Positions 16,906 to 39,422 of a DNA stretch of 64,000 nucleotides are shown piece by piece. How positions within the stretch are numbered: position 1 is the first letter of the stretch; every line of letters begins with the position of its first letter. The stretch comes from Elusimicrobia bacterium GWB2_63_16. GTDB taxonomy: Bacteria; Elusimicrobiota; Elusimicrobia; Elusimicrobiales; UBA9959. The position numbers were made by a program, and so were the translations under genes. The stretch spans positions 17,082-81,081 of the forward strand of contig MGTZ01000009.1 in assembly GCA_001799715.1 (NCBI GenBank), read 5' to 3'. The notes beneath the pieces were generated by a model. The model worked only from the letters and a program-made list of their open reading frames with translations, did no database searches and was not told the origin of the DNA.

Positions 16906-16920
16906 GATTTAAGGAGAATT

Positions 16921-22350: not shown

Positions 22351-22466
22351 ACGGCCGGAACTGAAACTTTCCGCCCCCCGGCGCATCTAAATTATCCGGG
22401 TAGAAAATCCGGAAAAAATTGGTATATTTCTTTTGGCGCTCCAAACGCCGAAAGGGGGAGACTAAA

Positions 22467-23219
22467 ATGAAAAAACTGATAGTACTGCCGCTGCTCGCGG
22501 CAATGTTCGCCGTTCAGCCGCTGTTCGCCGAGGGTATGCCGCTCATCGGGGACGACGCCCCGGCCTTCAAGGCCGTTACTACGCAGGGGCCGATAGACTT
22601 CCCGGCCGATTACAAAGGGAAGTGGGTGATATTGTTCAGCCATCCGGCTGACTTTACGCCGGTGTGCACCACCGAGTTCATGACCTTCGCCAGGATGATG
22701 CCGGAGTTCAAGGCGCTCAACACCGAGGTGGTGGGGCTGTCCATCGACAGCATCTATAGCCACGTGGCCTGGCTGCGGATGATAAAAGAGAAGATAGAGT
22801 ATAAGGGTATGAAGAACGTGGAAGTCACGTTCCCGCTTATCGAGGACATAAAGATGGAGGTGGCCAAAAAGTACGGCATGGTGCAGCCGAACGCCTCCGG
22901 TACCCAGGCCGTGCGGGCCGTGTTCTTCATCGACCCGGCGGGCAAGATCCGCGCGCTGATATATTACCCGCTCTCGGCGGGCCGCAACTTCGACGAGATC
23001 AAGCGCCTGCTGATAGCCATGCAGACCGCCGACAAGTATAAGGTGGCCACGCCGGCCGACTGGCGCCCCGGCGAAGACGTGATAGTGCCTCCGCCCAACT
23101 CCTGCGGGGTAGCCAAGACGCGCGTAGATACCCAGAAAGAGAGCGGGATGCACTGCTACGACTGGTTCATGTGCTTCAAGCCGATGCCCAAGGACGAGCC
23201 GAAAAAAGACGGGAAATAA
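22467..23219 (+). CDS. Peroxiredoxin (Prx6/archaeal-type, extra C-terminal Cys pair) with an N-terminal signal-peptide extension
   Basis: HPADFTPVCTTE peroxidatic-Cys motif and a C-terminal HCYDWFMCFK pair. GGGGGAG lies before the ATG at 22467. The canonical Prx N-terminus MPLIGDDAPAF starts at internal Met 22536. Confidence 0.85.
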   Translation: MKKLIVLPLLAAMFAVQPLFAEGMPLIGDDAPAFKAVTTQGPIDFPADYKGKWVILFSHPADFTPVCTTEFMTFARMMPEFKALNTEVVGLSIDSIYSHVAWLRMIKEKIEYKGMKNVEVTFPLIEDIKMEVAKKYGMVQPNASGTQAVRAVFFIDPAGKIRALIYYPLSAGRNFDEIKRLLIAMQTADKYKVATPADWRPGEDVIVPPPNSCGVAKTRVDTQKESGMHCYDWFMCFKPMPKDEPKKDGK

Positions 23220-23276: not shown

Positions 23277-23302
23277 TCATACTATTGTGTAGAATAGTAT
23301 GA
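23277..23302. promoter_or_regulatory. Perfect 10-6-10 palindrome overlapping the start of the NikR-like gene
   Basis: TCATACTATT-GTGTAG-AATAGTATGA. The outer hexamers TCATAC/GTATGA are those of the E. coli NikR operator half-sites, but in the swapped order and with N14 spacing. Confidence 0.65.
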
Positions 23303-23724: not shown

Positions 23725-25692
23725 ATGAAGACCGCCGCCGCGCTGCTGGCTTTCTTGCTTTGCCCCGCCGTTAAGGCGGCCGATATAGACATTACAGTGG
23801 TCACGCCGGCCAGGACGGCGCGCGCCATAGGCGACGTGCCCGGGGCGGTGGAGGTCCTCACCGGCGAACAGCTGCAAAGCGCCCCCGGCGGCACGCTGAA
23901 CGACAAGCTGGCCGCCCTGATCCCGGGCGCGGCTACCAACAGGGCCAACGGGATATACTCGTATACTTCGGTGCTGACGCTGCGAGGCCTGCCCGCCAAC
24001 GAGCAGGGCCGCACGCTGATACTGCTCGACGGCGTGCCGGTGAACACCAGCGCCACCGGAGCCGCCAACTGGAACCGCCTCGCGCTGGAGAACGTGGACC
24101 GCGTGGAGGTGCTCAAGGGGCCGGCCTCCGCTATCTACGGCTCCAACGCAGCGGCAGGCGTGATCAACATCATCACTAAAAAAAGCGCGCCGGGCTGGCG
24201 GCTGGGTTCCGCTTACGGCACTTACAACACCTTGCGCGCCAACGCCGGGGCCGGAGTAAAGCTTAAAGGTCTTTCCTTGTCGGCCGACGGGAGCTACCTG
24301 GCCAGCGACGGCTACAATTCCACTCCGGACTATTCCCCCGACCGGCCCTATTCCATTAATAAATACGTCAGGGAGAAGAACGCCGCGGCCAGGGCTTCGC
24401 TGGAGCTGGGAAGCGGCACGGCCGAGGCGGCATACTCCCGGACCGAAGGTCTGCGCGGCGAGGGCTATAAGATAAGGACCAACGGCAACAGCCGCCGGTA
24501 CACAACGGATTCGGCCCGCGCCGCATGGCGGGGCCGTAACGGGGAGGTTTCCTGGCTGGCGCAGGCCCATTACCAGCTCGAGGATTACGAGCGGCAGAGC
24601 GAGTCCGCGAAGAGCGGCTATACCAGGGCCGATACGGCCGCCCTGCGCGAAGACGCCGGCGGACAGGCCGCGTTCTCCGCGCCTTTGGCCGGGCTGACCG
24701 CAACGCTGGGCGCCGATTATAAGCTCGGCTCGGTGGATGCCACCGACACTTACACGGCGCCCTCCGCGTACGAGGCCAAGAACCGCGGACGGACCGCCCT
24801 GTACGCGCCCTACGCGCAGGCCGAGAAACAGTATTACGGCGGCCGTCTTAAACTGCTGGCGGCCCTGCGTTACGACAACGCCGTTTACTTCGGCGGCTAT
24901 TTCTACAACCCGTCCAACCCCGCCTACGGCGCCGTCAACGGCCCCCAGCGGCGCCATTACTGGGACAGTTTCTCGCCGAAAGCGGCCGCCTCCTGGCGCT
25001 ACTCGGACCAGGTAGAGCAGTATCTCTCCTACGGCAGGGGTTTCAGGCCGCCGGCGCTGGAGGACATGTGCCTGACCCTGAAAAAGGGAGCCGTGCTGTG
25101 GGTGGCCAATCCGGGATTGAAGCCTGAAACGGTGGATACCGCCGAGACGGGTTTCCGGCTGGCGCCGCTGGCCGGGCTGTATATCGAGCCGTCTGCCTAC
25201 TACACGCTGGGCCGCCATTTTATCTATCCCACCCTGCTCGGCGCCGCGCTGGGTAAAATGCAGAATATAGAAAGGGTGCGTATATACGGCGCGGAGCTGC
25301 CGGTGAAATACTACCGCGGCGGGCTGTCGCTGGCGGCGGCCTACGGCTGGTCCGAAAGCGGCATAGAAAAGTACTCGGCCAACCCCGCGCTGGAAGGCAA
25401 AACGCTGGTCAATTCCCCGCGCCACACCTTGTCCGCCAACATCGGCGTAAAGACCGCAGCGGCCGACCTGAACCTTGCGTGGACCTACAAATCCAGGCAG
25501 TACACGGCCGACAGCAACGGTGCCTGGGTCCGAGGGTATCACAACCTCTCGGCGTCGGCCTCGCGGGCCTTAACCGGGAGCGTCAGGATCAGCCTGTCCG
25601 CCGAGAATGTTTTCGACAAGCGCTACCAGGAGAGCTCCGCCGACCTGGCGCCGGGGCGGACCTTGACCCTTTCGGCGGAGGCCGGGTTCTGA
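23725..25692 (+). CDS. TonB-dependent outer-membrane receptor
   Basis: Signal peptide, plug motifs (VVTPARTA...VEVLTGEQL, LTLRGL, VEVLKGPASAIYGSNAAAGVINIITK), a long beta-barrel and C-terminal ...SAEAGF. Confidence 0.9.
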   Translation: MKTAAALLAFLLCPAVKAADIDITVVTPARTARAIGDVPGAVEVLTGEQLQSAPGGTLNDKLAALIPGAATNRANGIYSYTSVLTLRGLPANEQGRTLILLDGVPVNTSATGAANWNRLALENVDRVEVLKGPASAIYGSNAAAGVINIITKKSAPGWRLGSAYGTYNTLRANAGAGVKLKGLSLSADGSYLASDGYNSTPDYSPDRPYSINKYVREKNAAARASLELGSGTAEAAYSRTEGLRGEGYKIRTNGNSRRYTTDSARAAWRGRNGEVSWLAQAHYQLEDYERQSESAKSGYTRADTAALREDAGGQAAFSAPLAGLTATLGADYKLGSVDATDTYTAPSAYEAKNRGRTALYAPYAQAEKQYYGGRLKLLAALRYDNAVYFGGYFYNPSNPAYGAVNGPQRRHYWDSFSPKAAASWRYSDQVEQYLSYGRGFRPPALEDMCLTLKKGAVLWVANPGLKPETVDTAETGFRLAPLAGLYIEPSAYYTLGRHFIYPTLLGAALGKMQNIERVRIYGAELPVKYYRGGLSLAAAYGWSESGIEKYSANPALEGKTLVNSPRHTLSANIGVKTAAADLNLAWTYKSRQYTADSNGAWVRGYHNLSASASRALTGSVRISLSAENVFDKRYQESSADLAPGRTLTLSAEAGF

Positions 25693-27323
25693 TGGCAGGC
25701 CGCGCGCCGCTCTGGCGTAAGGCGGCCGTGATAGGCAGCCTGTGGGCTGCCTCGGAGATAGTGCTGGGCAGTTTCCTCAAGAACGCGCATATCCCTTTCG
25801 CCGGGCTGCTGCTGACCGGCATAGGGGTAGCCATACTGGTGGCGGGCCACCGCCTCTGGCCGGAAAGAGGCCTGCTCTGGCGCGCCGGACTGGTCTGCGC
25901 CGCCATGAAATCCATCTCTCCGAGCGCGGTGCTGCTGAGCCCCATGGTGGCCATCTTCGCCGAGGGCGTCTGCGCCGAGCTGGGCGTGCGGCTGCTCGGC
26001 GGCAATGCGGCGGGCTACCTGCTCGCCGGCGGCCTGGCTATGAGTTGGGGGCTGCTGCATAAGATCGGGAAGATATATATTTTTTACGGGCCGGAATCGG
26101 TGGGCGCCTACGCGCGGGGATTGCGGAAACTGAGAGACTGGCTGGGCAGCCCCGGCGGGATCTGGGAGCCTCTGGCGGCGCTGCTGGCGCTCTATTTACT
26201 GGCCGGCGCCTTCGCCGCCGCTATAGGCATGCGGGCGTCGCGCCGGGGCGAGACCGTGCCGGTCAAAGAGCGCGGCTCTGAAATTTTCAGGCCGCGGCCA
26301 GGCGCGCCAGCCGGTTATAACTCCGTGCTCATCCTTGCCGCCCATCTGGCCGCGGTGGCGGCGCTGATGGCTTCCGGAAATGTGCGCCTGGAATTAGCAG
26401 CCGCGCTCTCGGTCGTCTACGGCCTCCTCTGCGCCATCTTCTACCGCCGCTCTTCGGCGCTGCTGGGCCGGGGCGGGCTCTGGGCCGGGCTTGCGGCGGC
26501 CGGAGTGCTGGCCGGCTGGCTGTTGGGCGACTGGGGTTCCGGCCTGCGCATGGCCGCCCGCGCTTTCGCGCTTACGCTGGGTTTCGCCGCGATAGCGCAG
26601 GAACTGCTGAATCCCGCCGTGCGGCGCGGCCTGGAGCGCGCGGCGGGGCAGGCTTTCTTCGACACGCTAGAGTACGCTTTCGCCTCGCTGCCGCTGGTGC
26701 TGGAGGCGCTGCCATCCGGAAAAGACATGCTGCTGCGTCCCGCGGCCTCGCTGCGTACCGTTATTTCGCGAGCTCCTTGCCTGCTGGAGAGGAAGCGGCG
26801 GCGGGTGTATATTATCTCCGGCGGCCTCGGCGCCGGCAAATCCTCTCTGGCCGCCGCCCTGGCCCGGCTGCTGCTGGAAAAAGGGAAAAAGCCGGCCGGT
26901 ATGATCGCCGAGGGGTTCTGGGCCGGCGGCGTGCGGTCCGGTTTCGACCTGTTGGACCTTTCCGCCTGGGCCAGGACGCCTCTTTGCCGCCGCGGGGCCG
27001 GAGGCGGGACGCGCGCGGGGGAATTCGGGTTCTTCGAGGAAGGGCTCGCCGCCGGCCGCGCCGCCCTCGCTGCGAAGAAGACCGCCGGTGCCGCCGCCGT
27101 GTTCCTGGACGAAGTAGGTTTCCTGGAATTGGATGGTGGCGGCTGGGCGCCGCAGCTTGCCGCGCTGCTGGGCGAGGACGGCCCGCCCTTGGTGCTGGTG
27201 ATCCGGGACTACCTGCTGGAAAGAATAATCTCCCACTGGCGCATAAAGCCCGCCGCCGTCTGGACGGTCCCGGGCACCGAGCCCGAAGCGGCCCTCGCCG
27301 CGCTGACCGCCCGCGTTGACTAA
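25692..27323 (+). CDS. Fusion protein: polytopic membrane domain + C-terminal P-loop NTPase (THEP1/DUF2478-like)
   Basis: The ATG at 25692 shares its A with the receptor stop (TGATG). About 8-10 hydrophobic helices in the first ~390 aa, then Walker A ISGGLGAGKSSLA and Walker B AAVFLDEVG. The 5' extension in the track is discarded. Confidence 0.65.
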   Translation: MAGRAPLWRKAAVIGSLWAASEIVLGSFLKNAHIPFAGLLLTGIGVAILVAGHRLWPERGLLWRAGLVCAAMKSISPSAVLLSPMVAIFAEGVCAELGVRLLGGNAAGYLLAGGLAMSWGLLHKIGKIYIFYGPESVGAYARGLRKLRDWLGSPGGIWEPLAALLALYLLAGAFAAAIGMRASRRGETVPVKERGSEIFRPRPGAPAGYNSVLILAAHLAAVAALMASGNVRLELAAALSVVYGLLCAIFYRRSSALLGRGGLWAGLAAAGVLAGWLLGDWGSGLRMAARAFALTLGFAAIAQELLNPAVRRGLERAAGQAFFDTLEYAFASLPLVLEALPSGKDMLLRPAASLRTVISRAPCLLERKRRRVYIISGGLGAGKSSLAAALARLLLEKGKKPAGMIAEGFWAGGVRSGFDLLDLSAWARTPLCRRGAGGGTRAGEFGFFEEGLAAGRAALAAKKTAGAAAVFLDEVGFLELDGGGWAPQLAALLGEDGPPLVLVIRDYLLERIISHWRIKPAAVWTVPGTEPEAALAALTARVD

Positions 27324-27347
27324 TAGGCCGCAAGTTGTTAGGATGTG

Positions 27348-27369
27348 GTTATTGGCGTACGCCAATAAC
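27348..27369. promoter_or_regulatory. Perfect 22-bp palindrome immediately upstream of the DUF134 gene
   Basis: GTTATTGGCGTACGCCAATAAC equals its own reverse complement and ends 1 nt before the ATG at 27371. Confidence 0.7.
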
Positions 27370-27370
27370 T

Positions 27371-27670
27371 ATGCCCCGTCCCAGAAAATGCAGAAAGGTC
27401 ACCGCCGAACCCCGCGCCTATTATTTTAAACCGCGCGCGGTGCCGCTTTGTGAACTTGAAGAGGTGACGCTGCGGCTGGACGAACTGCAGGCGCTCAAGC
27501 ACGCAGACTTGAAACGGGGGGACCAGGCCTCCGGGGCCGCGGCCATGAAGGTGTCCAGGCAGACTTTTGGGAACATACTCGCTTCCGCCAGGCGGAAGCT
27601 GGCCGACGCCGTAGTTAACGGTAAGGCCCTCAAGATAGAGCCGGCCCCTCCCGCGGACAGGAAAAGCTGA
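27371..27670 (+). CDS. DUF134-family predicted DNA-binding protein
   Basis: MPRPRKCRKV...YFKP...LDELEALKHADL...QASGAAAMKVSRQTFGNILASARRKLA is the characteristic DUF134 (UPF0251) pattern with a sigma-70 region-4-like HTH. Confidence 0.75.
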   Translation: MPRPRKCRKVTAEPRAYYFKPRAVPLCELEEVTLRLDELQALKHADLKRGDQASGAAAMKVSRQTFGNILASARRKLADAVVNGKALKIEPAPPADRKS

Positions 27671-28104
27671 TGGAAACAAAAAAACAGCAGCATACCGGGC
27701 ATAAATCCCACGCGGCCTGCATAGCCTGCGGCCCCGCCAACCCCGTAGGGCTGCGCTTGAAATTCGCGCGCCAGGAGGACGGCTCCGTGCGCGCCGCCGT
27801 CTTCTGCCGCAGGGAGATGTCCGGTTATGACGGCTTCCTGCACGGCGGCGTAGCCGCGCTGATGCTCGACAGCGCCATGACCAACTGCCTCTTCTCCATG
27901 GGTATCGCCGCCCTGACGGCCGAATTTAACCTTAAGTACAAGGCCCCGGTGATCATAGGCCGGGCGGCTGAAGTAAGCGCCAGCCTGGTTTCCGACCTGG
28001 CCCCGCTGTATGTCATGAAAGCCGAGCTTTGCCAGGACGGCCAGCCCAAAGTGCTGGCCGAGGCCAAGTTCCTGAAAAATATCTTCCTTAAGGAGGGAGA
28101 ATGA
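27670..28104 (+). CDS. PaaI/hotdog-fold thioesterase family protein
   Basis: GFLHGGVAALMLDSAM motif, a CxxC near the N-terminus and 144 aa. The start overlaps the upstream stop. Confidence 0.7.
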   Translation: METKKQQHTGHKSHAACIACGPANPVGLRLKFARQEDGSVRAAVFCRREMSGYDGFLHGGVAALMLDSAMTNCLFSMGIAALTAEFNLKYKAPVIIGRAAEVSASLVSDLAPLYVMKAELCQDGQPKVLAEAKFLKNIFLKEGE

Positions 28105-28421
28105 AACTGGGTATTGTCATAACGCAGACCGAGCCGGAAAGCGTCTACAACGCGCTGCGGCTGGCACTCTATTCACGCAAGCAGGGCGACGAGGTAAAGG
28201 TCTTCCTGTCGGGCCGCGGGGTGGAGATAGACAAGATCGAGGACGCCCGGTTTGACGTTAAGGGCGAGGCCGAAAAACTCCTGGCCGCCGGCGGACGCTT
28301 TTTCGCCTGCGGCACCTGCCTGAAGATCCGCAACTCGGGAGGCTCCGAGATCTGCCCGCTGTCCACGCTGAAGGACCATTACGAGATAGTGCGCGACTCC
28401 GACAGGCTTATTACGGTCTGA
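28101..28421 (+). CDS. Small DsrE-family protein
   Basis: MKLGIVITQTEPESVYNALRLA...VFLSGRGV...FFACGTCLKIR, a DsrE-like fold pattern. ATGA overlap. Confidence 0.65.
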   Translation: MKLGIVITQTEPESVYNALRLALYSRKQGDEVKVFLSGRGVEIDKIEDARFDVKGEAEKLLAAGGRFFACGTCLKIRNSGGSEICPLSTLKDHYEIVRDSDRLITV

Positions 28422-28442
28422 GGGGGGGGGGCAACCTCCCGC

Positions 28443-28472
28443 TTGACAGGTCCCCGATGTTAATTGTACTAT
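28443..28472 (+). promoter_or_regulatory. Sigma-70-type promoter of the Fur-family gene
   Basis: TTGACA (28443-48), an 18-nt spacer and TACTAT (28467-72). Confidence 0.6.
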
Positions 28473-28491
28473 TGAGAATAGTTCTCATTAA
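28469..28491. promoter_or_regulatory. Fur-family 7-1-7 operator (box 1)
   Basis: CTATTGAGAATAGTTCTCATTAA with the core TGAGAAT-A-GTTCTCA. It overlaps the -10 element and the predicted transcription start of the Fur-family gene. Confidence 0.7.
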
Positions 28492-28493
28492 GT

Positions 28494-28961
28494 ATGCGCA
28501 ACCGCAAAGACCATGATCCTGACTGCTGCTGCCGCCGCATCCGCGGCGACGGCCGCCGCATGACGCCGCCGCGCCACGCCGTGCTGGACGCCCTCAGCGA
28601 GCGGGGGGAGCATTTGACCGCGGAGGAGGTTTTCAAGAAAGCCTCCCGCCGCTGCCCCAATATCGGCCTGGCCACCGTCTACCGCACGCTGGAGCTGCTG
28701 ACCGGCCTGGGCCTGGTCAGTAAGTTCGATACCGGCGACGACAAGGCCCGCTATGAGTTCGCCGACCCCGCCGGAGAGAAAGGGCATCATCACCACCTGG
28801 TCTGCAGCGGCTGCGGAAAGATAGTCGACTACAAGGATTTTATCGGCGAGGAGATGGAGCTGCTGCACAAGACGGAGCAGGGACTCTCTAAAAAATACGG
28901 CTTTAAGATCAAAAGCCATATCATACAGTTCTTCGGCCTCTGTCCGGATTGCGGGCGCTGA
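28494..28961 (+). CDS. Fur-family metalloregulator (Fur/Zur/PerR type not resolved)
   Basis: Winged helix (RHAVLDALSERGEHLTAEEVF...ATVYRTLELL), HHHHLVCSGCG and a C-terminal CPDC structural Zn site. The unusual Cys-rich 22-aa N-terminal extension (DCCC) would be absent if the real start is Met 28560. Confidence 0.8.
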   Translation: MRNRKDHDPDCCCRRIRGDGRRMTPPRHAVLDALSERGEHLTAEEVFKKASRRCPNIGLATVYRTLELLTGLGLVSKFDTGDDKARYEFADPAGEKGHHHHLVCSGCGKIVDYKDFIGEEMELLHKTEQGLSKKYGFKIKSHIIQFFGLCPDCGR

Positions 28962-28975
28962 TTTTTTTTAAGATT

Positions 28976-28998
28976 CTATTGAGAATACTTCTCATTAA
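28976..28998. promoter_or_regulatory. Fur-family 7-1-7 operator (box 2)
   Basis: CTATTGAGAATACTTCTCATTAA matches box 1 at 22 of 23 positions and ends 20 nt upstream of the DUF302 gene ATG. Confidence 0.7.
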
Positions 28999-29018
28999 CG
29001 ACCACAAGGAGACACAAC

Positions 29019-29513
29019 ATGGCAAAAAAGATAATTCTGGCGGCGGCTTTCATGGTTTTAGGCGCGGTGCTGGCGGCCTTCGGGGCGTATAAGGCGGCGC
29101 CGGGACTGATGATCGTTTCCGGCGAGACCGGCCTGGGCTTCGAGGAGAGCGTGGCGGCCCTGGAGAAAAGTATAAAAGGCAACGGCTGGGAGCACGCCGG
29201 CACTTCGCGCCTGAGCGACTCGATAGAGAAAAAAGGTTACGGCATAGGCCGCAGGGTGGCCGTGGTCAAGCTCTGCCATCCTAAATACGCGCAGGAGGTG
29301 CTGGCCTCTGACCGCTACCTCTCGGCGCTGATGCCCTGTTCGGTGGCCCTGTGGGAGGGAGACGACGGCAAGGTGCGCTACTCCAAGATGAACACCGGCC
29401 TTATCGCCCCTGTTTTCGGCGGCACGGTACGGCGGGTGATGGGCGGCAGCGTTGCGGCGGACGAGCACAAGATCCTTTCGGTGTTCTGCGGCGCAGACGC
29501 CTGCGGAAAATAA
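29019..29513 (+). CDS. DUF302-domain protein with N-terminal membrane anchor/signal
   Basis: N-terminal hydrophobic segment, then VAVVKLCHPKYAQEVL...LMPCSVALWE, which is typical of DUF302. Confidence 0.6.
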   Translation: MAKKIILAAAFMVLGAVLAAFGAYKAAPGLMIVSGETGLGFEESVAALEKSIKGNGWEHAGTSRLSDSIEKKGYGIGRRVAVVKLCHPKYAQEVLASDRYLSALMPCSVALWEGDDGKVRYSKMNTGLIAPVFGGTVRRVMGGSVAADEHKILSVFCGADACGK

Positions 29514-29529
29514 ATTTCAGGAGGTACTT

Positions 29530-29745
29530 ATGCCAAACAGGAACGGAACGGGTCCCCTGGGAATGGGGCCGATGAGCGGGAAGGGGGGCGGGCGCTGCGG
29601 CGCCGGCCGCGGCAGGGGCGCGGGCATGGGGATGGGGCGGCGCGGCATCTTCCAGGCTCCCGCGGAACCGACGGACGACGACACGCGGTCCATAAAAGAG
29701 CGCGTGGCGGAACTTGAGCGGCGCCTTAAAGAGGGAAAGAACTAG
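29530..29745 (+). CDS. DUF5320-like small protein (Gly/Arg-rich N-terminus + C-terminal coiled coil)
   Basis: MPNRNGTGPLGMGPMSGKGGGRCG... then KERVAELERRLKE. AGGAGG lies 6 nt upstream. The start is trimmed from the track ORF at 29452. Confidence 0.6.
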   Translation: MPNRNGTGPLGMGPMSGKGGGRCGAGRGRGAGMGMGRRGIFQAPAEPTDDDTRSIKERVAELERRLKEGKN

Positions 29746-29805
29746 CGGAGCAAGTATTTAAGCGGGAGGGGTTAGCCCCCCCCGCCGGTTAAACAGGAGA
29801 CAAAA

Positions 29806-30180
29806 ATGAAAATCGGCATCACATTGAACGACGACCAGGGGCTGAACAGCGAAGTCTGCGCCCATTTCGGCCAGTGCTCTCACTTCCTCATAGTGGAAGC
29901 GGAGGGGGACAAAATAAATAAATCCACGGTAGTGGTCAACGCGGCGGTGCACGGCGGCGGCGGCTGCCAGGCCGTGGGGGAGATCCTCAAGTACGGCATC
30001 ACGCACGTAATAGCCGGCGGCATGGGCATGGGCGCGCAGAATAAGTTCGCCGCCGCCAATGTGCCGATCTTCGGCTACTGCGGCAAAGCAGGGGACGCCG
30101 TGAAGGCGCTGCTGCAGAGCAAGCTGGGCGGCATAGATCCCTGCAAAGACCACGGCCACGACGGCAATTGCGGGCATTAA
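29806..30180 (+). CDS. NifX/NifB-C-terminal-like (dinitrogenase FeMo-cofactor-binding fold) protein, His/Cys-rich tail
   Basis: HFGQCSHFLIVE...ITHVIAGGMGMGAQNKF pattern of the NifX-like family. Tail CKDHGHDGNCGH. Confidence 0.7.
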   Translation: MKIGITLNDDQGLNSEVCAHFGQCSHFLIVEAEGDKINKSTVVVNAAVHGGGGCQAVGEILKYGITHVIAGGMGMGAQNKFAAANVPIFGYCGKAGDAVKALLQSKLGGIDPCKDHGHDGNCGH

Positions 30181-31020
30181 ATGAAACTGGCTGTCGCTAG
30201 CGGTAAGGGCGGCACGGGGAAGACCAGCCTGGCCTGCGCTCTGGCTCAGGTGCTGGGGCCCCGCGCCGCGCTGCTGGATTGCGACGTGGAGGAGCCCGAC
30301 TGCGCGCTTTTCCTGAATCCTGAGATAAAATTCGAAAAGGACTTCACGGTGGAAGTGCCGCGCATAGACCCGCAGAAATGCAGGGGCAGCGGGCGCTGCC
30401 AGGAAGTCTGCGAGTACAACGCCATAAAGCTGTTCAACGGCAAGCCCTACCTGTTCGGGCATATGTGCCACTCCTGCGGCGGCTGCGCCATAGCCTGCCC
30501 CGAGGGGGCCATCACGGAAATACCGCGCAAGGCCGGTAAGCTGCGGTCGGGCCTGGCCGGCGGGATCTTCTTCGCCGACGGCGTGCTGGACATAGGCGAG
30601 GCCAGCCCGGTGCGGCTGATAAAGGCCGTGAAAAAGCTGGCGCCCGACGGCCTTGACGTCATTATAGACTGCCCGCCGGGGACTTCCTGCCCCATGATAG
30701 CCTCGGTTACCGGGGCCGACTTCTGCCTGCTGGTCAGCGAGCCCACGCCGTTCGGCCTCAGCGACCTGAAGCTGGCCGTGGAAACCCTGGAAAAGATAAA
30801 GGTGCCGCATGCCCTGGCGATAAACCGCGCCGACCTCGGCGACGGGGAGATGGAGGCCTGGTGCGCGCGCAAAGGCCTGCCTATACTGCTCAAGATCCCT
30901 TTCGACCGGGAGATAGCCGCCGCCTATTCCCGCGGCCAGACCCTGCTGGAGGCCCGCCCCGAATACCGCCCGGCCCTGCGGTCCATGTTCGAGGCGATAA
31001 GGGCGGAGAGGGCCGCATGA
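30181..31020 (+). CDS. MinD/ParA-type P-loop ATPase with inserted 2x[4Fe-4S] ferredoxin domain (paralog 1)
   Basis: Deviant Walker A SGKGGTGKTSLA, ferredoxin insert CRGSGRCQEVCE / CHSCGGCAIACP, and IIDCPPGTSCP. Confidence 0.8.
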   Translation: MKLAVASGKGGTGKTSLACALAQVLGPRAALLDCDVEEPDCALFLNPEIKFEKDFTVEVPRIDPQKCRGSGRCQEVCEYNAIKLFNGKPYLFGHMCHSCGGCAIACPEGAITEIPRKAGKLRSGLAGGIFFADGVLDIGEASPVRLIKAVKKLAPDGLDVIIDCPPGTSCPMIASVTGADFCLLVSEPTPFGLSDLKLAVETLEKIKVPHALAINRADLGDGEMEAWCARKGLPILLKIPFDREIAAAYSRGQTLLEARPEYRPALRSMFEAIRAERAA

Positions 31021-31883
31021 AACAGGTACTGATACTCAGCGGCAAGGGCGGCACCGGCAAGACCACCGTGGCCGGAGCTTTCGCGCGGCTGGCGGCGCCC
31101 TGCGTTACGGCGGACTGCGACGTGGACGCGGCCGACCTGCATATCACGCTCTCCCCGGAGCCAGCGGAGCGCAAAAAATTTTTCGGCGGGAAAAAAGCCG
31201 CCATCGACCCGGCCAGGTGCGACGGCTGCGGCCGCTGCCTGGAGGTGTGCCGCTTCGAAGCCATACTTCCCGGGCCCTTCCGGATAAACGCCAACTACTG
31301 CGAGGGCTGCGGGGTCTGCGTCTGGAACTGCCCGGCCGGGGCTATAGATTTCCGGGAAGTGCTGAGCGGTACCTGGGCCGTTTCGCCCTGCCGCTTCGGG
31401 ACTTTCGCCGGGGCGCGGCTGGAACCGGCCGAGGAGAATTCCGGCAAGCTGGTGGCTCTGATTAAGACCGAGGCGGTGAAGGTCGCCGAAGCCGCCGGGG
31501 TGAAGTATCTGATCCTCGACGGCTCCCCCGGCATAGGCTGCCCCGTGCTGGCTTCGCTGGGCGGGGTGGATGCCGTGGTGGTGGTGGCCGAGCCCACCGT
31601 TTCCGGCCGGCATGATTTCCTGCGCCTGGCCGAACTGCTGAAAGCGCAGAAGATCCGCGGCTTCCTGCTGGTGAACAAGTGGGACCTGAACGGCGAAGAA
31701 ACCGCCAGGCTGGAAGCCGCCGCGGCGCAATACGGTTTTCCACTGCTCGGGCGCGTCCCTTTCGACGCCGCGGTAGTGAAAGTGCTCGTTGACCGGAAGA
31801 CCCTCGGAGAGGAAGGGGGCGGCGAGGCCGCCGCCGCCGTGGAGTTGGCCTGGAACAAGCTGAACCTGGGACTGGAGGCTTAA
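31017..31883 (+). CDS. MinD/ParA-type P-loop ATPase with inserted 2x[4Fe-4S] ferredoxin domain (paralog 2)
   Basis: SGKGGTGKTTVA, CDGCGRCLEVCR / CEGCGVCVWNCP, and ILDGSPGIGCP. ATGA overlap with paralog 1. The 5' extension in the track is discarded. Confidence 0.8.
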   Translation: MKQVLILSGKGGTGKTTVAGAFARLAAPCVTADCDVDAADLHITLSPEPAERKKFFGGKKAAIDPARCDGCGRCLEVCRFEAILPGPFRINANYCEGCGVCVWNCPAGAIDFREVLSGTWAVSPCRFGTFAGARLEPAEENSGKLVALIKTEAVKVAEAAGVKYLILDGSPGIGCPVLASLGGVDAVVVVAEPTVSGRHDFLRLAELLKAQKIRGFLLVNKWDLNGEETARLEAAAAQYGFPLLGRVPFDAAVVKVLVDRKTLGEEGGGEAAAAVELAWNKLNLGLEA

Positions 31884-32245
31884 TGGAAGACAGGAAAATG
31901 AAGATAGAAGACGCGCTGAAAGAATATGCCGGCCGCCTGAACGACCCGGACGCCTCGGCCAGCGTCACCGGTCCCTGCGGCGACACGATGGAGTTTTATA
32001 TCAATATCGAAGGGGACAAGATCAGCAAGATAAGGTATCACGCCGAGGGCTGCGGCGTCACGCAGGCCTGCGGGGCCGTGGTTTCATTTTACGCGGACCA
32101 GCGCCCGCTGGCCGAGGCGTTCTTCGTCTCTCCGGGGCTGGTGCTCAAGACCCTGGGGCAGGTGCCCGAAGACCATAAGCATTGCGCCATACTGGCCTCC
32201 ACCGCTTTTTACAGGGCGCTGGCCGATTACCTGATAAAACCCTGA
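31883..32245 (+). CDS. IscU/NifU-N-terminal-like Fe-S scaffold protein
   Basis: The three scaffold Cys contexts GPCGD, EGCGV and HKHCAIL, in 120 aa. Confidence 0.7.
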   Translation: MEDRKMKIEDALKEYAGRLNDPDASASVTGPCGDTMEFYINIEGDKISKIRYHAEGCGVTQACGAVVSFYADQRPLAEAFFVSPGLVLKTLGQVPEDHKHCAILASTAFYRALADYLIKP

Positions 32246-32985
32246 TGGAAGTCCGACTTCTCCTGCTCAGCCTGGCCGGCAGCGTGCTCAGCGTCGCGGC
32301 CGCCGGTCTATTCCTGGTCTTCCCGGAAAAGACGCGCAGGCAAATGGTGCCTTGCCTGGTCAGCTACGCCACCGGCACTCTGCTGGGCGCGGCCTTCCTG
32401 GGCATGCTGCCCAAGGCCTTGGGGATGGGCGCGCCGGCCTTGCCGGTACTGGCCGCCGCGCTTGCCGGGCTGTTCCTCTTCCTGGGCCTGGAGAAGACCC
32501 TGCTCTGGCGGCATTGCCACACTGAGAACTGCGAAGTGCATTCCTCGGCCGGCATCATGATAACGGTGGGCGACGCGCTGCACAACTTTATGGACGGCGT
32601 GCTGATAGGTTCGGCCATGCTGGTCTCGCCCGCGCTGGCTTTCAGTTCCACCCTGGCGGTGGTGGCGCACGAGATACCGCAGGAGACCGGGGACTTCGCC
32701 ATAATGCTCTCGGCGGGCTGGTCCGTGAAGAAAGCCATGGCGGCCAATATCGCGGCTTCGCTGGCCACCCTGCCGGGGGCTTTCGGGGCCTATTACCTGC
32801 TCGACTCTTTCAGGCCGGCGCTGCCCTATGTGCTGGCCGTCTCCGCGGCAAGTTTTATTTACATAGCGCTCGCAGATTTGATACCGGCCGCGCACCGCCA
32901 CCCGAAGCAGGGAAAGCCGGCGCTGCAGTTCCTGCTGGGCCTGGCCGGCGTGGGTACCATAGCCATTTTCGTTTTGAAACATTAA
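32245..32985 (+). CDS. ZIP-family divalent metal permease (ZupT-like)
   Basis: GDALHNFMDGVLIG and VVAHEIPQETGDFAIM motifs with about 8 TM helices. The ATG overlaps the upstream TGA. Confidence 0.8.
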   Translation: MEVRLLLLSLAGSVLSVAAAGLFLVFPEKTRRQMVPCLVSYATGTLLGAAFLGMLPKALGMGAPALPVLAAALAGLFLFLGLEKTLLWRHCHTENCEVHSSAGIMITVGDALHNFMDGVLIGSAMLVSPALAFSSTLAVVAHEIPQETGDFAIMLSAGWSVKKAMAANIAASLATLPGAFGAYYLLDSFRPALPYVLAVSAASFIYIALADLIPAAHRHPKQGKPALQFLLGLAGVGTIAIFVLKH

Positions 32986-32995
32986 GGGAGGGAAT

Positions 32996-33319
32996 ATGAA
33001 AATATGCGTATCCGCGATGGGCGGTTCCATGGAAGCTAAGGTGAGCGAGCGCTTCGGCCGCGCGCCTTACTTCGTGATAGTGGAGAGCGACGACATGAGC
33101 TTCTTGCCGGTGCTTAACGGCGCGGTCAGCATGCAGGGCGGCGCGGGCCCCGAAGCTGTGCGCCAGGCGGCCGAGCACGGCGCCAAAGTTGTGCTGACCG
33201 GAGAGCTGGGCGGCAACGCCAAAACGGCTGTTGAAGCCGCCGGCATAAAAGGCGTTACCGGCGTTTCCGGCACCAAGACCGTGCGGGAAGCCGTGGAAGA
33301 GTTCCTGGCTAAAAAATGA
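32996..33319 (+). CDS. NifX/NifB-C-terminal-like protein (second copy)
   Basis: RFGRAPYFVIVE...GAKVVLTGELGGNAKTAVEAAGI pattern, 107 aa. Confidence 0.7.
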   Translation: MKICVSAMGGSMEAKVSERFGRAPYFVIVESDDMSFLPVLNGAVSMQGGAGPEAVRQAAEHGAKVVLTGELGGNAKTAVEAAGIKGVTGVSGTKTVREAVEEFLAKK

Positions 33320-34134
33320 ACTCCTTCAAGTATTGTTATGGCCCGGTGGGATCGTGGCGGCTGGGAGTATCGCTCGGTATAGACCCGGTTTCGCAGCCGG
33401 AGAAGATCTGCACCTTCGACTGTACTTATTGTCAGTTGGGAACGCGTGCGGCGCAGGCGGCGCGCCGCCAGGTGTACGTGAGCCCCGCTGACCTGGGGGC
33501 GGAACTGGACCTGATAAAAGCCCCGGCAGATTACCTGACTTTTTCGGGACGCGGCGAGCCCACCATGGCGTCCAACCTGCCGGAACTGCTCCTGGAGTGC
33601 GGCCACCGCCGGCCGGAAAAGACCGCCATAATCACTAACGCTTCTATGATGTATTCGGAGAAGGTCAGGGAGGAACTGGCCTCCTTCGATTTTGTGCTGG
33701 CTAAACTGGACGCCCCGGACAGCGGCCTGTTCGGGAGCATAAACAGGCCCGGCCCCGGCGTATACTTTGAAGAGGTACTGCGCGGCCTGATCCTGTTCTC
33801 CAAGGGGCGGCGCGGCCGGCTGGCGATACAGACCATGGTCCTAGCCGCCAATAAAGATCAGGCCAAAGGCCTGGCGCGCCTTTACGCGGATATCGGCCCC
33901 GACGAGGTGCAGCTGAACACGCCGCTGCGTCCCTGCGCCGAGCGGCCGCTGCCCAGGGAGGAACTGGAGGCGGTGGCGGCCGCGGTGTCCGCCGAACTGT
34001 CGCGGCTCGGGGCCGGCGCCATAAGGATTATAAACGTGTACGGGGAAAAAGCCCCGGAGGTGGAGCCGGTCAGCGCGCCGGACACGCTGCTGCGGCGCGG
34101 CAAAACTCGCGGCGGCAAGGAAGGAGGAAAATGA
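33316..34134 (+). CDS. Small radical-SAM enzyme
   Basis: CTFDCTYCQ (CxxxCxxC) near the N-terminus and GEPT in FSGRGEPTM. 272 aa with ATGA overlaps on both sides. Confidence 0.75.
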   Translation: MNSFKYCYGPVGSWRLGVSLGIDPVSQPEKICTFDCTYCQLGTRAAQAARRQVYVSPADLGAELDLIKAPADYLTFSGRGEPTMASNLPELLLECGHRRPEKTAIITNASMMYSEKVREELASFDFVLAKLDAPDSGLFGSINRPGPGVYFEEVLRGLILFSKGRRGRLAIQTMVLAANKDQAKGLARLYADIGPDEVQLNTPLRPCAERPLPREELEAVAAAVSAELSRLGAGAIRIINVYGEKAPEVEPVSAPDTLLRRGKTRGGKEGGK

Positions 34135-34949
34135 ACACGCAGGAAGCCATGAAACAGCAGGGCGAAGAGATCTCCGCCAGGATGAAACTGGTGCGCCGCA
34201 AGGTGCTGGTGATGAGCGGCAAGGGCGGGGTGGGCAAGAGCACGGTGGCGGTGAACCTGGCCGCCGCCATGGCCGCAGCCGGCAAGAAGACCGGCCTGCT
34301 CGACATAGACCTGCACGGCCCCAACGTGCCGCGGATGCTGGGCATAGACGGCATGCGGCTGGAGTCCGACGGCGAGGACATTCTGCCTTACGCCGCCGCG
34401 CCCAACCTGTGGGCCTGCAGCATGGCGCTGCTCGGCGTGGATCCCTCCACGGCGCTCATCTGGCGCGGCCCGCGCAAGACCTCCGCCATCAAGGAGCTGC
34501 TCGGCGGAGTTAAATGGGGAACGCTTGATTATCTTTTCCTTGATTCTCCTCCCGGCACCGGCGACGAATCGCTTACCGCTGCCCAGTCCATCCCCGGCCT
34601 TACCGGCGCGGTTCTGGTGACCACCCCGCAGGAGGTGGCGCTCGACGACGCACGCCGCAGCGCTTCTTTCGCCGCCAGTATGAAGTTGAGAATACTCGGC
34701 GTGGTCGAGAACATGAGCGGTTTCGTCTGCCCAGGCTGCGGCCTGGAGACGCCGGTGTTCAGCAGCGGCGGCGGCGAGAAACTGGCCGCAGAGCTCAAGA
34801 CCTCGTTCCTCGGCCGTATACCGCTGGACCCGCTGGCCGTCAGCCGGGCCGACGCCGGGCGCACCCTGTTCGATATCGAATCCGGCAAGACCCGCGAGGC
34901 CGTGCGGGCCATAGCCGCTAAGTTCGAGGAGGCCTGCGCCGGCCTATGA
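34131..34949 (+). CDS. Mrp/NBP35/ApbC-family Fe-S cluster carrier ATPase
   Basis: VMSGKGGVGKSTVAVNLA, LDSPPGTGDE and the CPGCG (CxxC) cluster-bridging motif. Confidence 0.85.
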   Translation: MNTQEAMKQQGEEISARMKLVRRKVLVMSGKGGVGKSTVAVNLAAAMAAAGKKTGLLDIDLHGPNVPRMLGIDGMRLESDGEDILPYAAAPNLWACSMALLGVDPSTALIWRGPRKTSAIKELLGGVKWGTLDYLFLDSPPGTGDESLTAAQSIPGLTGAVLVTTPQEVALDDARRSASFAASMKLRILGVVENMSGFVCPGCGLETPVFSSGGGEKLAAELKTSFLGRIPLDPLAVSRADAGRTLFDIESGKTREAVRAIAAKFEEACAGL

Positions 34950-35224: not shown

Positions 35225-35255
35225 ATGTGTTATTATTTCCATAAAGGTAACACAT
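35225..35255. promoter_or_regulatory. Inverted repeat overlapping the nikR start codon
   Basis: ATGTGTTA-N15-TAACACAT. The right arm contains the ATG at 35254. Confidence 0.55.
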
Positions 35256-37907: not shown

Positions 37908-38858
37908 ATGTTGGCGCCTGAAATTACCAAAGCTTTCTCCGGCGGAACAAGCTTCCTGCTGCGGATGCTGCCCGTCTTCGCGGCCGCCGTCTATGCGGCC
38001 AACCTCGCGGGCAGGCTGGGCTGGCTCTCCGGCCTGGCCTGGCTGGCCGGACCGGTGATGCGGCTGGGACGGCTCAGCCCGAACTGCGGGCCCGGCTTCG
38101 TCACCAGCATAGTGTCGCCCACGGCGGGCCACGCCCTGCTGGCCGACCTGCGGGTGGCTGGAAAGCTGGACCGGCGCGAACTGACCGTGGCCGCCGTGGT
38201 CAATAACCTGCCCGGGGAGATCGCTGCTGGAAAGAGCGTGCTGCCGCTGGCCTTGCCGTTGCTGGGTTTCTTCGGGGCGGCCTATTACGGGGCGCTGCTG
38301 GCCGCCGCCGCGCTGAAAGCGCTGCTGATGCTGCTGGCCGGGCGGTTGTTGCTGCCCCGGCGCCCCCGCGCGGCGGCCGCCGCCCTCCGCCCGACGGGCG
38401 TGCCGCTGCGCGCTGCGGCCGCGGCCTCGCTCAAACCTTCGCTGCGGACCATGCTCAAGGTGCTCAAGACCATGGTCCCGGCGGCTTACCTCGTCTATTT
38501 CCTGCTGGCCGCCGGCTTTTTCGACAAGGCGGCCGGGCCGCTGGCTTTCCTGACCGAATACCTGCCGCTGAACCCGGCCGTGCTGCCGGTGGTGGCGGCC
38601 AGGCTGTTGAGCCCGGCCGGCGCTTATACCGTGGCCGGCGGGCTCTATGCCGCCGGCGCGGCCACCGGCTGGGAACTGGTGCTGGCGCTCTTCGCCGGCG
38701 CTTTCGCGGCTACCGCCACCAGCCTGCGCTATACCGTGCCGTATTATTTCGGCATCTTCGGCGCCGCCGACGGCACGGCGATAATAGCGGCGTCCCTGGC
38801 CTCGCGCCTGGCCGCCTACGGCGCGGTGCTGCTGGCGCTGGTATTCTTTATCTCCTGA
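37908..38858 (+). CDS. Polytopic membrane protein, nucleoside-recognition (FeoB Gate-like) domain suspected
   Basis: Starts 4 nt after the receptor stop. PVMRLGRLSPNCGPGFVTSIVSPTAGHALLADL...NNLPG resembles Gate-domain proteins. Multiple hydrophobic helices. Confidence 0.6.
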   Translation: MLAPEITKAFSGGTSFLLRMLPVFAAAVYAANLAGRLGWLSGLAWLAGPVMRLGRLSPNCGPGFVTSIVSPTAGHALLADLRVAGKLDRRELTVAAVVNNLPGEIAAGKSVLPLALPLLGFFGAAYYGALLAAAALKALLMLLAGRLLLPRRPRAAAAALRPTGVPLRAAAAASLKPSLRTMLKVLKTMVPAAYLVYFLLAAGFFDKAAGPLAFLTEYLPLNPAVLPVVAARLLSPAGAYTVAGGLYAAGAATGWELVLALFAGAFAATATSLRYTVPYYFGIFGAADGTAIIAASLASRLAAYGAVLLALVFFIS

Positions 38859-38867
38859 GGAGGCCCT

Positions 38868-39422
38868 ATGACTGAAAATCCGCAAACTAAGGACAGTTAT
38901 CTGGAAGGCCGGCGGCTGGAGTCCGTCGCCAGAAAACAGAATTCTCCCGGCGCCTGGCTGAAGTTCGCGGCGGTCAAGGCCGCCAAGGGCAGCTACGCGC
39001 TGGCCGCTATGGGCTTCCTGAACTCCGGTATCTTGGCCGAAGCCGGCGGCGGGGCGCCGGCGGCCGCGGCCTATGAGCGGGGCCTGGCGGTCTGTTTGAA
39101 AGGCGGCCTCAAAGAGGTCGCCCTCATTCTTGTTTCAAGGCTAGCGGCCCTGCGCGAACGCGCCGGTGACTTCTCCGGGGCCGCGGCGGCTTATGAAAGT
39201 TTTGCTTCCTTCTGCGAGGGCGCCGGTGCTTTTTTCCTGGCCGCGGACGCCGGCGAGCACGCGGCGGAGCTGCGCCTGGCGGCCGGGGAGGAACTCTCCG
39301 CCTACACCAAACCGGCGGAATTGTGGCTGCGCAACGCGGAGTACTGGAAAGACAAGAACGCCGGCGACGAGGCCTGGAGCCGCCGTCGGGCGGAGCTCTA
39401 CCTGGAGGCCGTAAAGAAATGA
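38868..39422 (+). CDS. Ala-rich helical (TPR-like?) hypothetical protein
   Basis: GAGGAGG lies upstream of the ATG. 184 aa of helical-repeat-like composition. No family recognised. Confidence 0.5.
   Translation: MTENPQTKDSYLEGRRLESVARKQNSPGAWLKFAAVKAAKGSYALAAMGFLNSGILAEAGGGAPAAAAYERGLAVCLKGGLKEVALILVSRLAALRERAGDFSGAAAAYESFASFCEGAGAFFLAADAGEHAAELRLAAGEELSAYTKPAELWLRNAEYWKDKNAGDEAWSRRRAELYLEAVKK

Follow-up and report, generated by a model that had tools for sequence, protein, structure and literature searches.

A probable orp (orange-protein complex) gene cluster in an Elusimicrobia genome, with predicted Fur-type control

Introduction

The orange-protein (ORP) complex is kept across anaerobic bacteria and archaea, and more than a decade after its description its role is unresolved, cell division and Fe-S maturation both having been proposed. 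In Desulfovibrio vulgaris, Orp3, Orp4, Orp5, Orp8 and Orp9 are reported to co-purify in a complex (PMC6345978, PMC3897727), and in strain Hildenborough the orp1 and orp2 operons require sigma-54, integration host factor (IHF) and the redox-sensing activator OrpR (PMC8359166). MrpORP (Orp9) carries a bridging [4Fe-4S] cluster via a CxxC motif, transfers it in vitro to aconitase and to Orp3/Orp4, and is located at one cell pole; Orp8/ORP homologues hold a Mo-Cu-sulfide cluster, [S2MoS2CuS2MoS2], non-covalently; and the complex has been called "putatively involved in cell division" (PMC6345978). Here we analyse a stretch of 64,000 nucleotides from Elusimicrobia bacterium GWB2_63_16 (contig MGTZ01000009.1, positions 17,082 to 81,081; hereafter the window, whose own coordinates are used unless another locus is named) and argue that its region 27348-34949 is, with a probability of about three in four, the Elusimicrobia version of the orp cluster, placed under Fur-type control.

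A preliminary description of this DNA had presented the region as an orphan metallocluster island with no assigned function. The first term no longer fits, as the core matches the described orp/ORP-complex cluster through 2WFB, NF041136 and a Desulfovibrio locus (PMC6345978, PMC8359166, PMC3897727). With respect to function, the association of genes is known as the ORP system, while its physiological role is, as had been stated, still open; the supposed orphan can be recognised as belonging to a system that has been described, though not yet in its function. The orp system itself is already in the literature, and what looks new here is its regulation by a Fur-family subfamily. Our confidence in the detailed working of the cluster proteins is much lower than in the identity of the cluster and its Fur-type control.

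Results

Identity of the core genes

Fourteen tightly packed genes on the same (+) strand make up the region; the preliminary description had the strand right but counted fifteen. Families were called by Pfam profile search, which reproduced every family named earlier for the cluster, and the gene set is confirmed by a second gene call made independently on this metagenomic contig. From 29806 to 34949, neighbouring genes overlap or lie at most 11 bp apart.

27371-27670, + strand: DUF134/UPF0251 predicted DNA-binding protein (PF02001, E=5e-19)
27670-28104, + strand: hotdog-fold 4HBT/PaaI-type thioesterase with N-terminal CxxC (PF03061)
28101-28421, + strand: small DsrE-like protein with ACGTC motif, a possible sulfur carrier (PF02635)
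28494-28961, + strand: Fur-family regulator with Cys-rich N-terminal extension DPDCCCRRIRGDGRRMT (PF01475, E=3e-31, 108.7 bits)
29019-29513, + strand: DUF302 protein with N-terminal hydrophobic segment (PF03625)
29530-29745, + strand: short DUF5320 protein, MPNRNGTGP..., Gly/Arg-rich with coiled-coil end (PF17253)
29806-30180, + strand: NifXa, NifX-fold (Nitro_FeMo-Co) protein with CAHFGQC and C-terminal tail CKDHGHDGNCGH (PF02579)
30181-31020, + strand: MinD-ferredoxin ATPase 1 (MinD-Fd 1), CbiA/MinD ATPase with inserted ferredoxin (2 Fer4), Orp3/Orp4-type paralog A (Pfam)
31017-31883, + strand: MinD-Fd 2, CbiA/MinD ATPase with inserted 2x[4Fe-4S] ferredoxin, Orp3/Orp4-type paralog B (Pfam)
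31883-32245, + strand: IscU/NifU_N-like scaffold with GPCGD, GC (GCGV) and HKHC (PF01592)
32245-32985, + strand: ZIP/ZupT-like divalent-metal permease (PF02535, E=2e-29)
32996-33319, + strand: ORPb, NifX-fold (Nitro_FeMo-Co, PF02579) homologue of the orange protein (ORP/Orp8) (PDB 2WFB match)
33316-34134, + strand: small radical-SAM enzyme, COG0731-like, CTFDCTYC (PF04055)
34131-34949, + strand: Mrp/NBP35 Fe-S carrier ATPase (ParA/NUBPL) with GKGGVGKST and CPGC (PF10609, 288.9 bits)

The core, 29530-34949, has one-to-one counterparts in the Desulfovibrio ORP-complex cluster, and window genes match all five components (Orp3, Orp4, Orp5, Orp8 and Orp9), with Orp9 split into two genes. ORPb finds D. 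gigas ORP (2WFB) as its best PDB match (E=5e-14 over 103 residues). As a reference locus we used the orp locus of Desulfovibrio sp. X2, whose ORP is 74% identical to that of D. gigas and whose gene order is a sigma-54 enhancer-binding protein (EBP) with PAS domain, two small proteins (one of them Gly-rich and DUF5320-like), ORP, two MinD-Fd proteins and a NifX-fold protein. By BLASTP, ORPb is 44% identical to the X2 ORP and 28% to the second X2 NifX protein (NifX126), the latter being the counterpart of NifXa (31%). The two ATPases sort in the same way, MinD-Fd 1 being closer to X2 paralog A than to B (42% vs 30%) and MinD-Fd 2 closer to B than to A (48% vs 32%), and the two pairs are reciprocal best matches.

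The Mrp protein scores 311 bits against the NCBIfam model of MrpORP, NF041136, aligning to the P-loop part (positions 2-246 of 365), and 214 bits against ApbC. The C-terminal Di-Nase part of the same model is matched by both NifX-fold proteins. Of these, NifXa has CAHFGQC and a C-terminal C-x-DH...C, the motifs reported in the [3Fe-4S]-binding Di-Nase domain of MrpORP (PMC6345978), and C-termini of the type CDH, CGGGGH or CKDHxHxGGCH are found throughout its family.

The preliminary description had given each MinD ATPase a 2x[4Fe-4S] ferredoxin, which holds for paralog B; in paralog A the first motif has three Cys only (CRGSGRC...C), making 3+4 Cys against 4+4. At residues 66-77 of MinD-Fd 1 (30376-30411), the window protein and its two closest relatives, P0015 and P0024, have Ser, His or Arg in place of the second Cys (CxG[S/H/R]GRC), with more distant homologues all having CxxCxxC; this suggests a three-Cys site in this lineage.

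Conservation of the cluster across phyla

A scan anchored on MinD-Fd 1 returned 80 loci from many phyla (Planctomycetota, Omnitrophota, Desulfobacterota, Chloroflexota, Acidobacteriota, NC10, Spirochaetota, Bathyarchaeia, Methanocellaceae and others), with no Elusimicrobia and no D. vulgaris locus among them; three Elusimicrobia relatives (L085, L086 and L087) and the X2 locus were obtained separately. Partners in the 80 loci were counted by tblastn with the window proteins, and as many contigs are incomplete the counts are lower bounds: a second MinD-Fd in 78/80, an ORP-like protein in 70/80, Mrp in 41/80, NifXa in 29/80, the IscU-like scaffold in 25/80, the radical-SAM enzyme in 22/80, DUF134 in 11/80, 4HBT in 10/80, the Fur-like protein in 9/80, the DsrE-like protein in 3/80, and ZIP and DUF302 in none (0/80 each). 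The shared genes lie nearly always on one strand.

A second count, by all-against-all clustering of the open reading frames (ORFs) in 84 loci with Pfam run on the cluster representatives, gives the NifXa family in 59/84 and a third NifX-fold family in 28/84 loci, followed by Zn-ribbon (23/84), DUF5320 (21/84), an OrpR-like sigma-54 EBP with PAS domain (20/84), metallo-beta-lactamase (20/84), ARMT1/DUF89 (16/84), Fur-like (12/84), DUF134 (12/84), 4HBT (11/84), CGGC (10/84), TrmO_N (9/84) and DUF364, annotated as "heavy-metal chelation" (8/84). CoA-disulfide-reductase-rhodanese fusions, SAM methyltransferases, a 1-Cys peroxiredoxin and DUF1847 are found more rarely. No hydrogenase, carbon monoxide dehydrogenase (CODH), nitrogenase or Mo/W enzyme recurs as a neighbour in the 84 loci, and the neighbourhood analysis that had been proposed for finding a client enzyme places no such family beside the cluster, here or in related loci. 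The idea of a coherent metallocluster module is borne out, as its genes are co-conserved across phyla and not juxtaposed by chance. The Elusimicrobia relatives L085, L086 and L087 keep the Fur-like protein, the NifX-fold proteins and the MinD-Fd pair, with gene order, DUF5320 and accessories (IscU-like, DUF364, TauE and radical-SAM; ZIP elsewhere or absent) varying among them.

These neighbourhoods bear on the proposal that the system acts in cell division or positioning, its metal clusters serving as redox sensors and not as cargo. Both window ATPases have the deviant Walker A motif of the MinD/ParA class, GKGGTGKT being invariant, and for the Desulfovibrio proteins a MinD-like C-terminal amphipathic helix in Orp3/Orp4 adds to the polar position of MrpORP and the suggested part in division (PMC6345978). 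The recurrent neighbours are, however, scaffolds, carriers, sulfur-handling and metal-binding proteins with no division genes among them; in the window no min, fts or par gene stands beside the cluster, the one ParA-type gene found (5645-6481) being 22 kb off; and with its Fur-family regulator and ZIP permease the operon points towards metal status. A division role is, to us, decidedly improbable.

No better does the cluster fit metal-sulfide storage or detoxification, in which NifX-fold proteins would sequester iron-sulfide or thiometallate in sulfidic anoxic habitats and the ATPases would load and unload them. The cationic tail described for the C-terminus of IssA (PMC6345978) is absent from both window NifX proteins, one having a Cys/His tail and the other none; Pfam finds no Mo/W or Cu transporter in the island; and Fur-type repression usually induces at metal scarcity, the opposite of a storage or detoxification logic. 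While up to three NifX-fold families occur in one locus, ORP binds its Mo-Cu-sulfide cluster non-covalently, thioferrate is bound and stored by IssA, a protein of that fold (PMC6345978), and DsrE, rhodanese fusions, metallo-beta-lactamases, TehB-like methyltransferases and DUF364 co-occur, we consider this explanation very unlikely too.

Transcription units and operators

The regulatory features found in the region are as follows.

27316-27344, + strand: sigma-70-like promoter TTGACT-17-TAGGAT of the DUF134 unit (predicted by consensus scan)
27348-27369, no strand: perfect 22-bp palindrome GTTATTGGCGTACGCCAATAAC, predicted DUF134-type operator, single copy in the window
28443-28472, + strand: sigma-70-like promoter TTGACA-18-TACTAT of the fur-like gene (consensus scan)
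28470-28491, no strand: Fur-type box 1, core TGAGAA-TAG-TTCTCA, overlapping the -10 hexamer (motif search)
28977-28998, no strand: Fur-type box 2, 20 bp 5' of the DUF302 start codon (motif search)

Both Fur-type boxes read TATTGAGAATA[G/C]TTCTCATTAA, a pattern whose chance expectation is 0, so the operator pair noticed in the preliminary description is real. The same description had put the whole island under the Fur-family regulator; this stands for the fur gene and the 10-gene operon but not for the DUF134-4HBT-DsrE genes, which have an operator of another kind, their own palindrome, and no Fur box. From the positions of promoters and operators, we infer that the region is transcribed as three units, the first made up of DUF134-4HBT-DsrE, the second of the fur-like gene and the third of the genes from DUF302 to Mrp (29019-34949).

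Hairpins after the DsrE, fur, DUF5320 and Mrp genes are no more stable than shuffled controls, and the terminator-like matches of the promoter/terminator scan were for that reason not used as evidence. An Rfam search of the whole window matches no RNA family, riboswitches included. A run of 10 G (28422-28431) follows the DsrE gene and a run of 8 C (29776-29783) the DUF5320 gene; the two intergenic regions are complementary in part over 23 nt, and their local hairpins again do not exceed shuffled sequence.

A Fur-family subfamily heading orp-type clusters

Genes for orthologues of the Fur-like protein, 36-60% identical, stand at the head of the cluster in 12 loci from at least seven phyla, among them Omnitrophota, Planctomycetota, WOR-3, Clostridia, Verrucomicrobiota, Spirochaetia and Elusimicrobia. 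The OrpR-like EBP heads 20 loci, and one locus has both, the two regulators being nearly exclusive. In agreement with Fur control, the sigma-54 promoters and OrpR-type EBP of Desulfovibrio are missing from the window island: its intergenic regions have no sigma-54 -24/-12 promoter, the hits of the search being fewer than expected by chance, and Pfam finds no EBP gene in it. The exact window box, TGAGAATNNTTCTCA, is found in none of the 82 other loci; the conserved site emerged from reading the upstream regions and from a position matrix. In six loci (L008, L013, L017, L022, L028 and L039) the fur-like gene is preceded by TTGACA, a -10 hexamer and then AATG(A/G)AAAynrTTTTCAaT before the ribosome-binding site, and in L052 the box lies at the very start of the upstream stretch read. 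The matrix built from the conserved sites has 21 matches in 1.27 Mb, among them sites at the equivalent places in L085 and L086, on which it had not been trained, and, in L008 and L039, a second box immediately 3' of the fur gene; L085 has such a second box as well, and in all three it precedes a DUF5320 gene.

The subfamily keeps, by alignment, the His/Glu/His/His/Asp metal ligands, HHHHLVCxxC, a six-residue insertion and a second CxxC. In the N-terminal extension, most phyla have WWHGKFRGCGYR(M/I)T; the window and its two nearest Elusimicrobia relatives, L085 and L086, have DPDCCCRRIRGxGRRMT. Fur is the best match both in PDB, where B. subtilis PerR comes second, and in NCBIfam, with 117 bits against a cut-off of 220; the protein stays below every equivalog cut-off. 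Taken together, these findings lead us to see it as a putative dedicated repressor of its own gene and of the orp-type operon. Fe2+ would probably be the co-repressor, although the signal may also be another metal or oxidation. The literature searched (Fur together with NifX-like proteins) contains no description of Fur-family control of such clusters, and the regulatory architecture of Fur-family subfamily and DUF134, conserved across phyla, appears undescribed and new.

The N-terminal extension (MPRRDGTGPQWWHGKFRGCGYR in L008, 133-200) resembles the N-terminus of DUF5320 proteins, MPGGDGTGPxGMGPMTGRAAGYC ... RxWFYATGLPGW, the stretches compared in the window being 28494-28560 and 29530-29600. 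A DUF5320 gene lies directly downstream of the fur-like gene in most Fur-headed loci; the literature searched holds no functional description of this family.

A number of points weigh against the assignment to an orp cluster under Fur-type control. Identities to the Desulfovibrio proteins are only 31-48%. The Mrp protein falls short of the NF041136 cut-off (311 vs 450 bits) and has neither the fused Di-Nase domain nor the N-terminal four-Cys motif of MrpORP; the two-domain architecture is missing from the window, where the Di-Nase-like protein is a separate gene. No significant terminator or hairpin marks the boundaries of the three units, which were drawn solely from promoter and operator positions. 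Among the window ORFs submitted to Pfam there is no cysteine desulfurase that could act as sulfur donor, and the organism is known solely as a metagenome-assembled genome. The window box shows two symmetric differences from the Bacillus Fur consensus and so does not by itself tell which metal is sensed. Finally, L052 is the only subfamily member without Asp at the position held by Asp104 in B. subtilis PerR and by Glu in B. subtilis Fur; Asp there would fit a peroxide or redox sensor better than an iron sensor.

The last point leads to a different view of the regulator, as a PerR-like peroxide or redox sensor inducing the cluster for repair or replacement after oxidative Fe-S damage. It would agree with PerR being the second-best PDB match, with the 1-Cys peroxiredoxin gene 4 kb upstream of the cluster, whose family recurs in four related loci, and with the rubrerythrin, AhpC, desulfoferrodoxin and rubredoxin upstream in L086. 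Yet the best NCBIfam and PDB matches are Fur, and the box has G-A at positions 2-3, typical of Fur and not of PerR boxes in B. subtilis. The orp operons of Desulfovibrio are redox-controlled, which speaks for such a sensor, but there oxidising conditions turn them off, not on (PMC8359166). We find the PerR-like alternative doubtful, if less so than a role in division or storage, and retain Fur-type control by metal status as the preferred reading.

DUF134 and its palindrome

The palindrome in front of the first unit lies between the promoter-like site and the DUF134 start codon. DUF134 genes of Zixibacteria, Desulfobacterales, Dehalococcoidia, Verrucomicrobiota, Acidobacteriota and of one Methanocellaceae archaeon likewise have palindromes 5' to them, of the form (G/A)TTAT-N3-CAT|ATG-N3-ATAA(C/T); with at most three mismatches allowed, 7 of the 74 matches in 1.24 Mb fall in the 120 bp immediately 5' of the 12 DUF134 genes, where about 0.1 would be expected by chance. 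Near-perfect copies, TTATGAGCATA[T/A]GCTCATAA, and variants are also found just 5' of ORP/MinD-Fd genes in loci that have no adjacent DUF134 gene:

L058, 3591: DUF134-type palindrome
L081, 9580 and 9960: DUF134-type palindromes
L053, 9850 and 9883: DUF134-type palindromes
L062, 3506: DUF134-type palindrome
L072, 5087: DUF134-type palindrome
L082, 7762: DUF134-type palindrome

With such palindromes in front of both DUF134 genes and ORP/MinD-Fd genes, DUF134 may represent a third way of regulating orp-type clusters, an alternative to OrpR and the Fur-like protein; its control in the window apparently extends to its own three-gene unit only. The literature searched contains nothing functional on DUF134/UPF0251/COG1342.

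Accessory genes

The IscU-like scaffold matches PF01592 and has the motifs GPCGD, GCGV and HKHC, while its scores for TIGR03419 and all equivalogs are below cut-off. For the radical-SAM protein, a sequence search against PDB gave no match, and its AF2 model (pLDDT 87.7) finds generic barrels only, at TM ~0.6 (DesII, TYW1, viperin, NifB and PFL-AE); a substrate assignment from the fold was rejected, the matches being to the generic radical-SAM barrel. In related loci the 4HBT thioesterase often follows Mrp-NifX. The DsrE-like protein is 74-78% identical to copies situated between the MinD-Fd genes in L033 (10837) and L049 (3504), from Verrucomicrobiota and Pirellulales genomes in which the neighbouring genes are only 45-50% identical.

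Neither L085, the Elusimicrobia relative with 77% identity, nor L087 has a ZIP gene in its cluster, and in L086 the gene lies on the other strand 3 kb away. Because ZIP and DUF302 were found in 0/80 loci and ZIP varies among the Elusimicrobia relatives, the two are evidently recent, lineage-specific additions; the other island genes, including the thioesterase, DsrE and DUF134, evidently belong together.

This distribution also affects the reading put forward in the preliminary description, an orphan pathway coupling metal import, through ZIP and the NikR-controlled receptors, to the assembly or trafficking of Fe-S or heterometal clusters. ZIP does sit inside the Fur-box operon, with gaps of 0-11 bp or overlaps to its neighbours, metal-related accessories (DUF364, CGGC, Zn-ribbon and DUF1847) recur elsewhere, no client enzyme is nearby, and a NikR-receptor-NTPase_1 module adjoins the cluster in L085 too. 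The core is, however, that of the described ORP complex; the absence of ZIP and DUF302 from all 80 loci, and of ZIP from the clusters of L085 and L087, makes the coupling to metal uptake weak; and the NikR operators differ from the Fur boxes, the receptors having regulators of their own. The synteny in that one close relative is the sole link between the NikR-receptor modules and the cluster, and the functional tie that had been drawn between them is not upheld. Coupling to import is in our view rather unlikely, and we keep to the orp cluster under Fur-type control.

Flanks and the rest of the window

Both flanks consist of NikR and TonB-dependent receptor modules, confirming that the region lies between two of them. 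A palindromic TCATAC-N14-GTATGA (23277-23302) overlaps the start codon of the first NikR, and in front of the second NikR a TTGACC-18-TATTAT promoter is overlapped by GTGTTA-N15-TAACAC (35227-35253). Each of the two paralogs probably recognises an operator of its own. After the first TonB-dependent receptor comes a 544-aa protein (25689-27323) with a long hydrophobic N-terminal part and a C-terminal THEP1-like NTPase_1 domain; in L085, where the protein is encoded at 6616-8280, the NikR-receptor-NTPase_1 module likewise precedes an orp-type cluster. The 1-Cys peroxiredoxin (22419-23219) lies just upstream of the first NikR, one of its relatives near orp-type clusters being that of L075 (19281-20054).

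Further upstream, a same-strand run (11708-17472) encodes two HdrA-like proteins (Pyr_redox_2 and 4Fe-4S ferredoxin), another ferredoxin-domain protein and DsrE_2, and is followed by a FadL/TodX-type outer-membrane protein (17497-18693). Past the second TonB receptor, 37908-40761 holds a "Gate" (nucleoside-recognition) membrane protein, a 184-aa protein matching no family, DUF2117 (a family described as archaeal) and a 92-aa protein, and 42003-42908 a ZnuA-type binding protein.

The earlier statement that the window has no nifHDK, nifEN or nifB, hydrogenase or CODH holds for the ORFs submitted to Pfam (nearly all ORFs of at least about 290 aa), none of which is a nitrogenase, hydrogenase or CODH. 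Group VI nitrogenase paralogs reported from groundwater Elusimicrobia (bioRxiv 10.1101/765248) were considered as a possible connection, which was rejected, as the window has none and the cluster occurs in many phyla without them. The same goes for a horizontally acquired island: GC content and composition do not differ from those of the flanks, so that the word island is a mere figure of speech.

Discussion

A possible mechanism and its meaning

From homology, gene order, co-conservation and operator conservation, a working scheme can be proposed for what goes beyond them, namely binding, signal, direction of regulation and cluster flow. By analogy with Desulfovibrio biochemistry, a cluster would be assembled on the IscU-like scaffold and then carried as a bridging [4Fe-4S] by the CxxC of an Mrp dimer, which would hand it on to the two MinD-ferredoxin ATPases; the NifX-fold proteins would bind an Fe-S or heterometal-sulfide species. 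The Fur-family repressor of the second unit would bind the two 7-1-7 boxes, at its own promoter and in front of the third unit, and the boxes would be freed once the co-repressor metal, probably Fe2+, is lost or oxidised; the first unit would be autoregulated by the DUF134 protein via its own palindrome.

More broadly, anaerobes may widely share the orp system as a module under metal-status control, switched by any one of three interchangeable dedicated regulators (OrpR, the Fur subfamily with its Cys/Trp-rich N-terminal extension, or DUF134 acting on its palindrome) and providing a separate Fe-S or metal-sulfide route that is induced when the co-repressor metal is short; we offer this as a tentative idea, possible but not one we would yet favour. 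If true, such a route would have its own IscU-like scaffold and its own Mrp and MinD-ferredoxin carriers, DUF134 and DUF5320 would gain their first functional context, and iron status would be the missing cue for the ORP complex. In many phyla a Fur-type repressor or DUF134 heads the same gene set in place of the redox-sensing OrpR, and the set often brings its own IscU-like scaffold, radical-SAM enzyme and sulfur- or metal-handling accessories. These heads offer cues that can be tested, metal limitation and specific operators, together with candidate regulators and a predicted DNA site for DUF134.

Comparison with known systems

Overall, the closest described system is that of the D. vulgaris orp1/orp2 operons, which share with the window an ORP-type and a second, Cys/His-containing NifX-fold protein, two MinD-ferredoxin ATPases and Mrp/NBP35; a Gly-rich DUF5320-like gene adjoins there too, at the same position in X2. 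The D. vulgaris genes form two divergent operons under a sigma-54/OrpR/IHF logic, whereas the window has one co-directional operon with a predicted Fur-family repressor and two boxes instead, adds an IscU-like scaffold, a radical-SAM enzyme, ZIP and DUF302, and belongs to an Elusimicrobia host that, unlike Desulfovibrio, is no sulfate reducer. With MrpORP/Orp9, the window Mrp has in common the P-loop with deviant Walker A GKGGVGKST and the CxxC (CPGC); the Di-Nase domain is fused in the former, while in the window a free-standing Di-Nase-like gene lies 4 kb upstream of Mrp. ORPb is similar in length to D. gigas ORP (2WFB), though clearly divergent in alignment, and its lack of the NifXa-type Cys/His cluster motif would fit non-covalent cluster binding as in the D. 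gigas protein.

Nitrogenase cofactor proteins are more distant relatives. NifX, NafY and the C-terminal domain of NifB share PF02579 with the window NifX-fold proteins; the radical-SAM gene matches no NifB model and resembles NifB at the level of the generic fold only; and neither the window ORFs submitted to Pfam nor the recurrent neighbours in the 84 loci provide the linkage to nifHDK, nifEN or nifB seen in the nitrogenase cofactor pathway.

The regulator has in common with B. subtilis Fur and PerR the winged helix and dimerisation domain, HHHH-L-V-C-x2-C, the C-terminal CxxC and the ligand set, as well as a promoter-overlapping inverted repeat of the 7-1-7 type. It differs from them by an N-terminal extension of ~22 residues and a 6-residue insertion after the first CxxC, and in the box, TGA(G/A)AAT in the window subfamily against TGATAAT for B. 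subtilis Fur. Unlike B. subtilis Fur and PerR, the gene is embedded in an orp-type cluster, to which its product is apparently dedicated.

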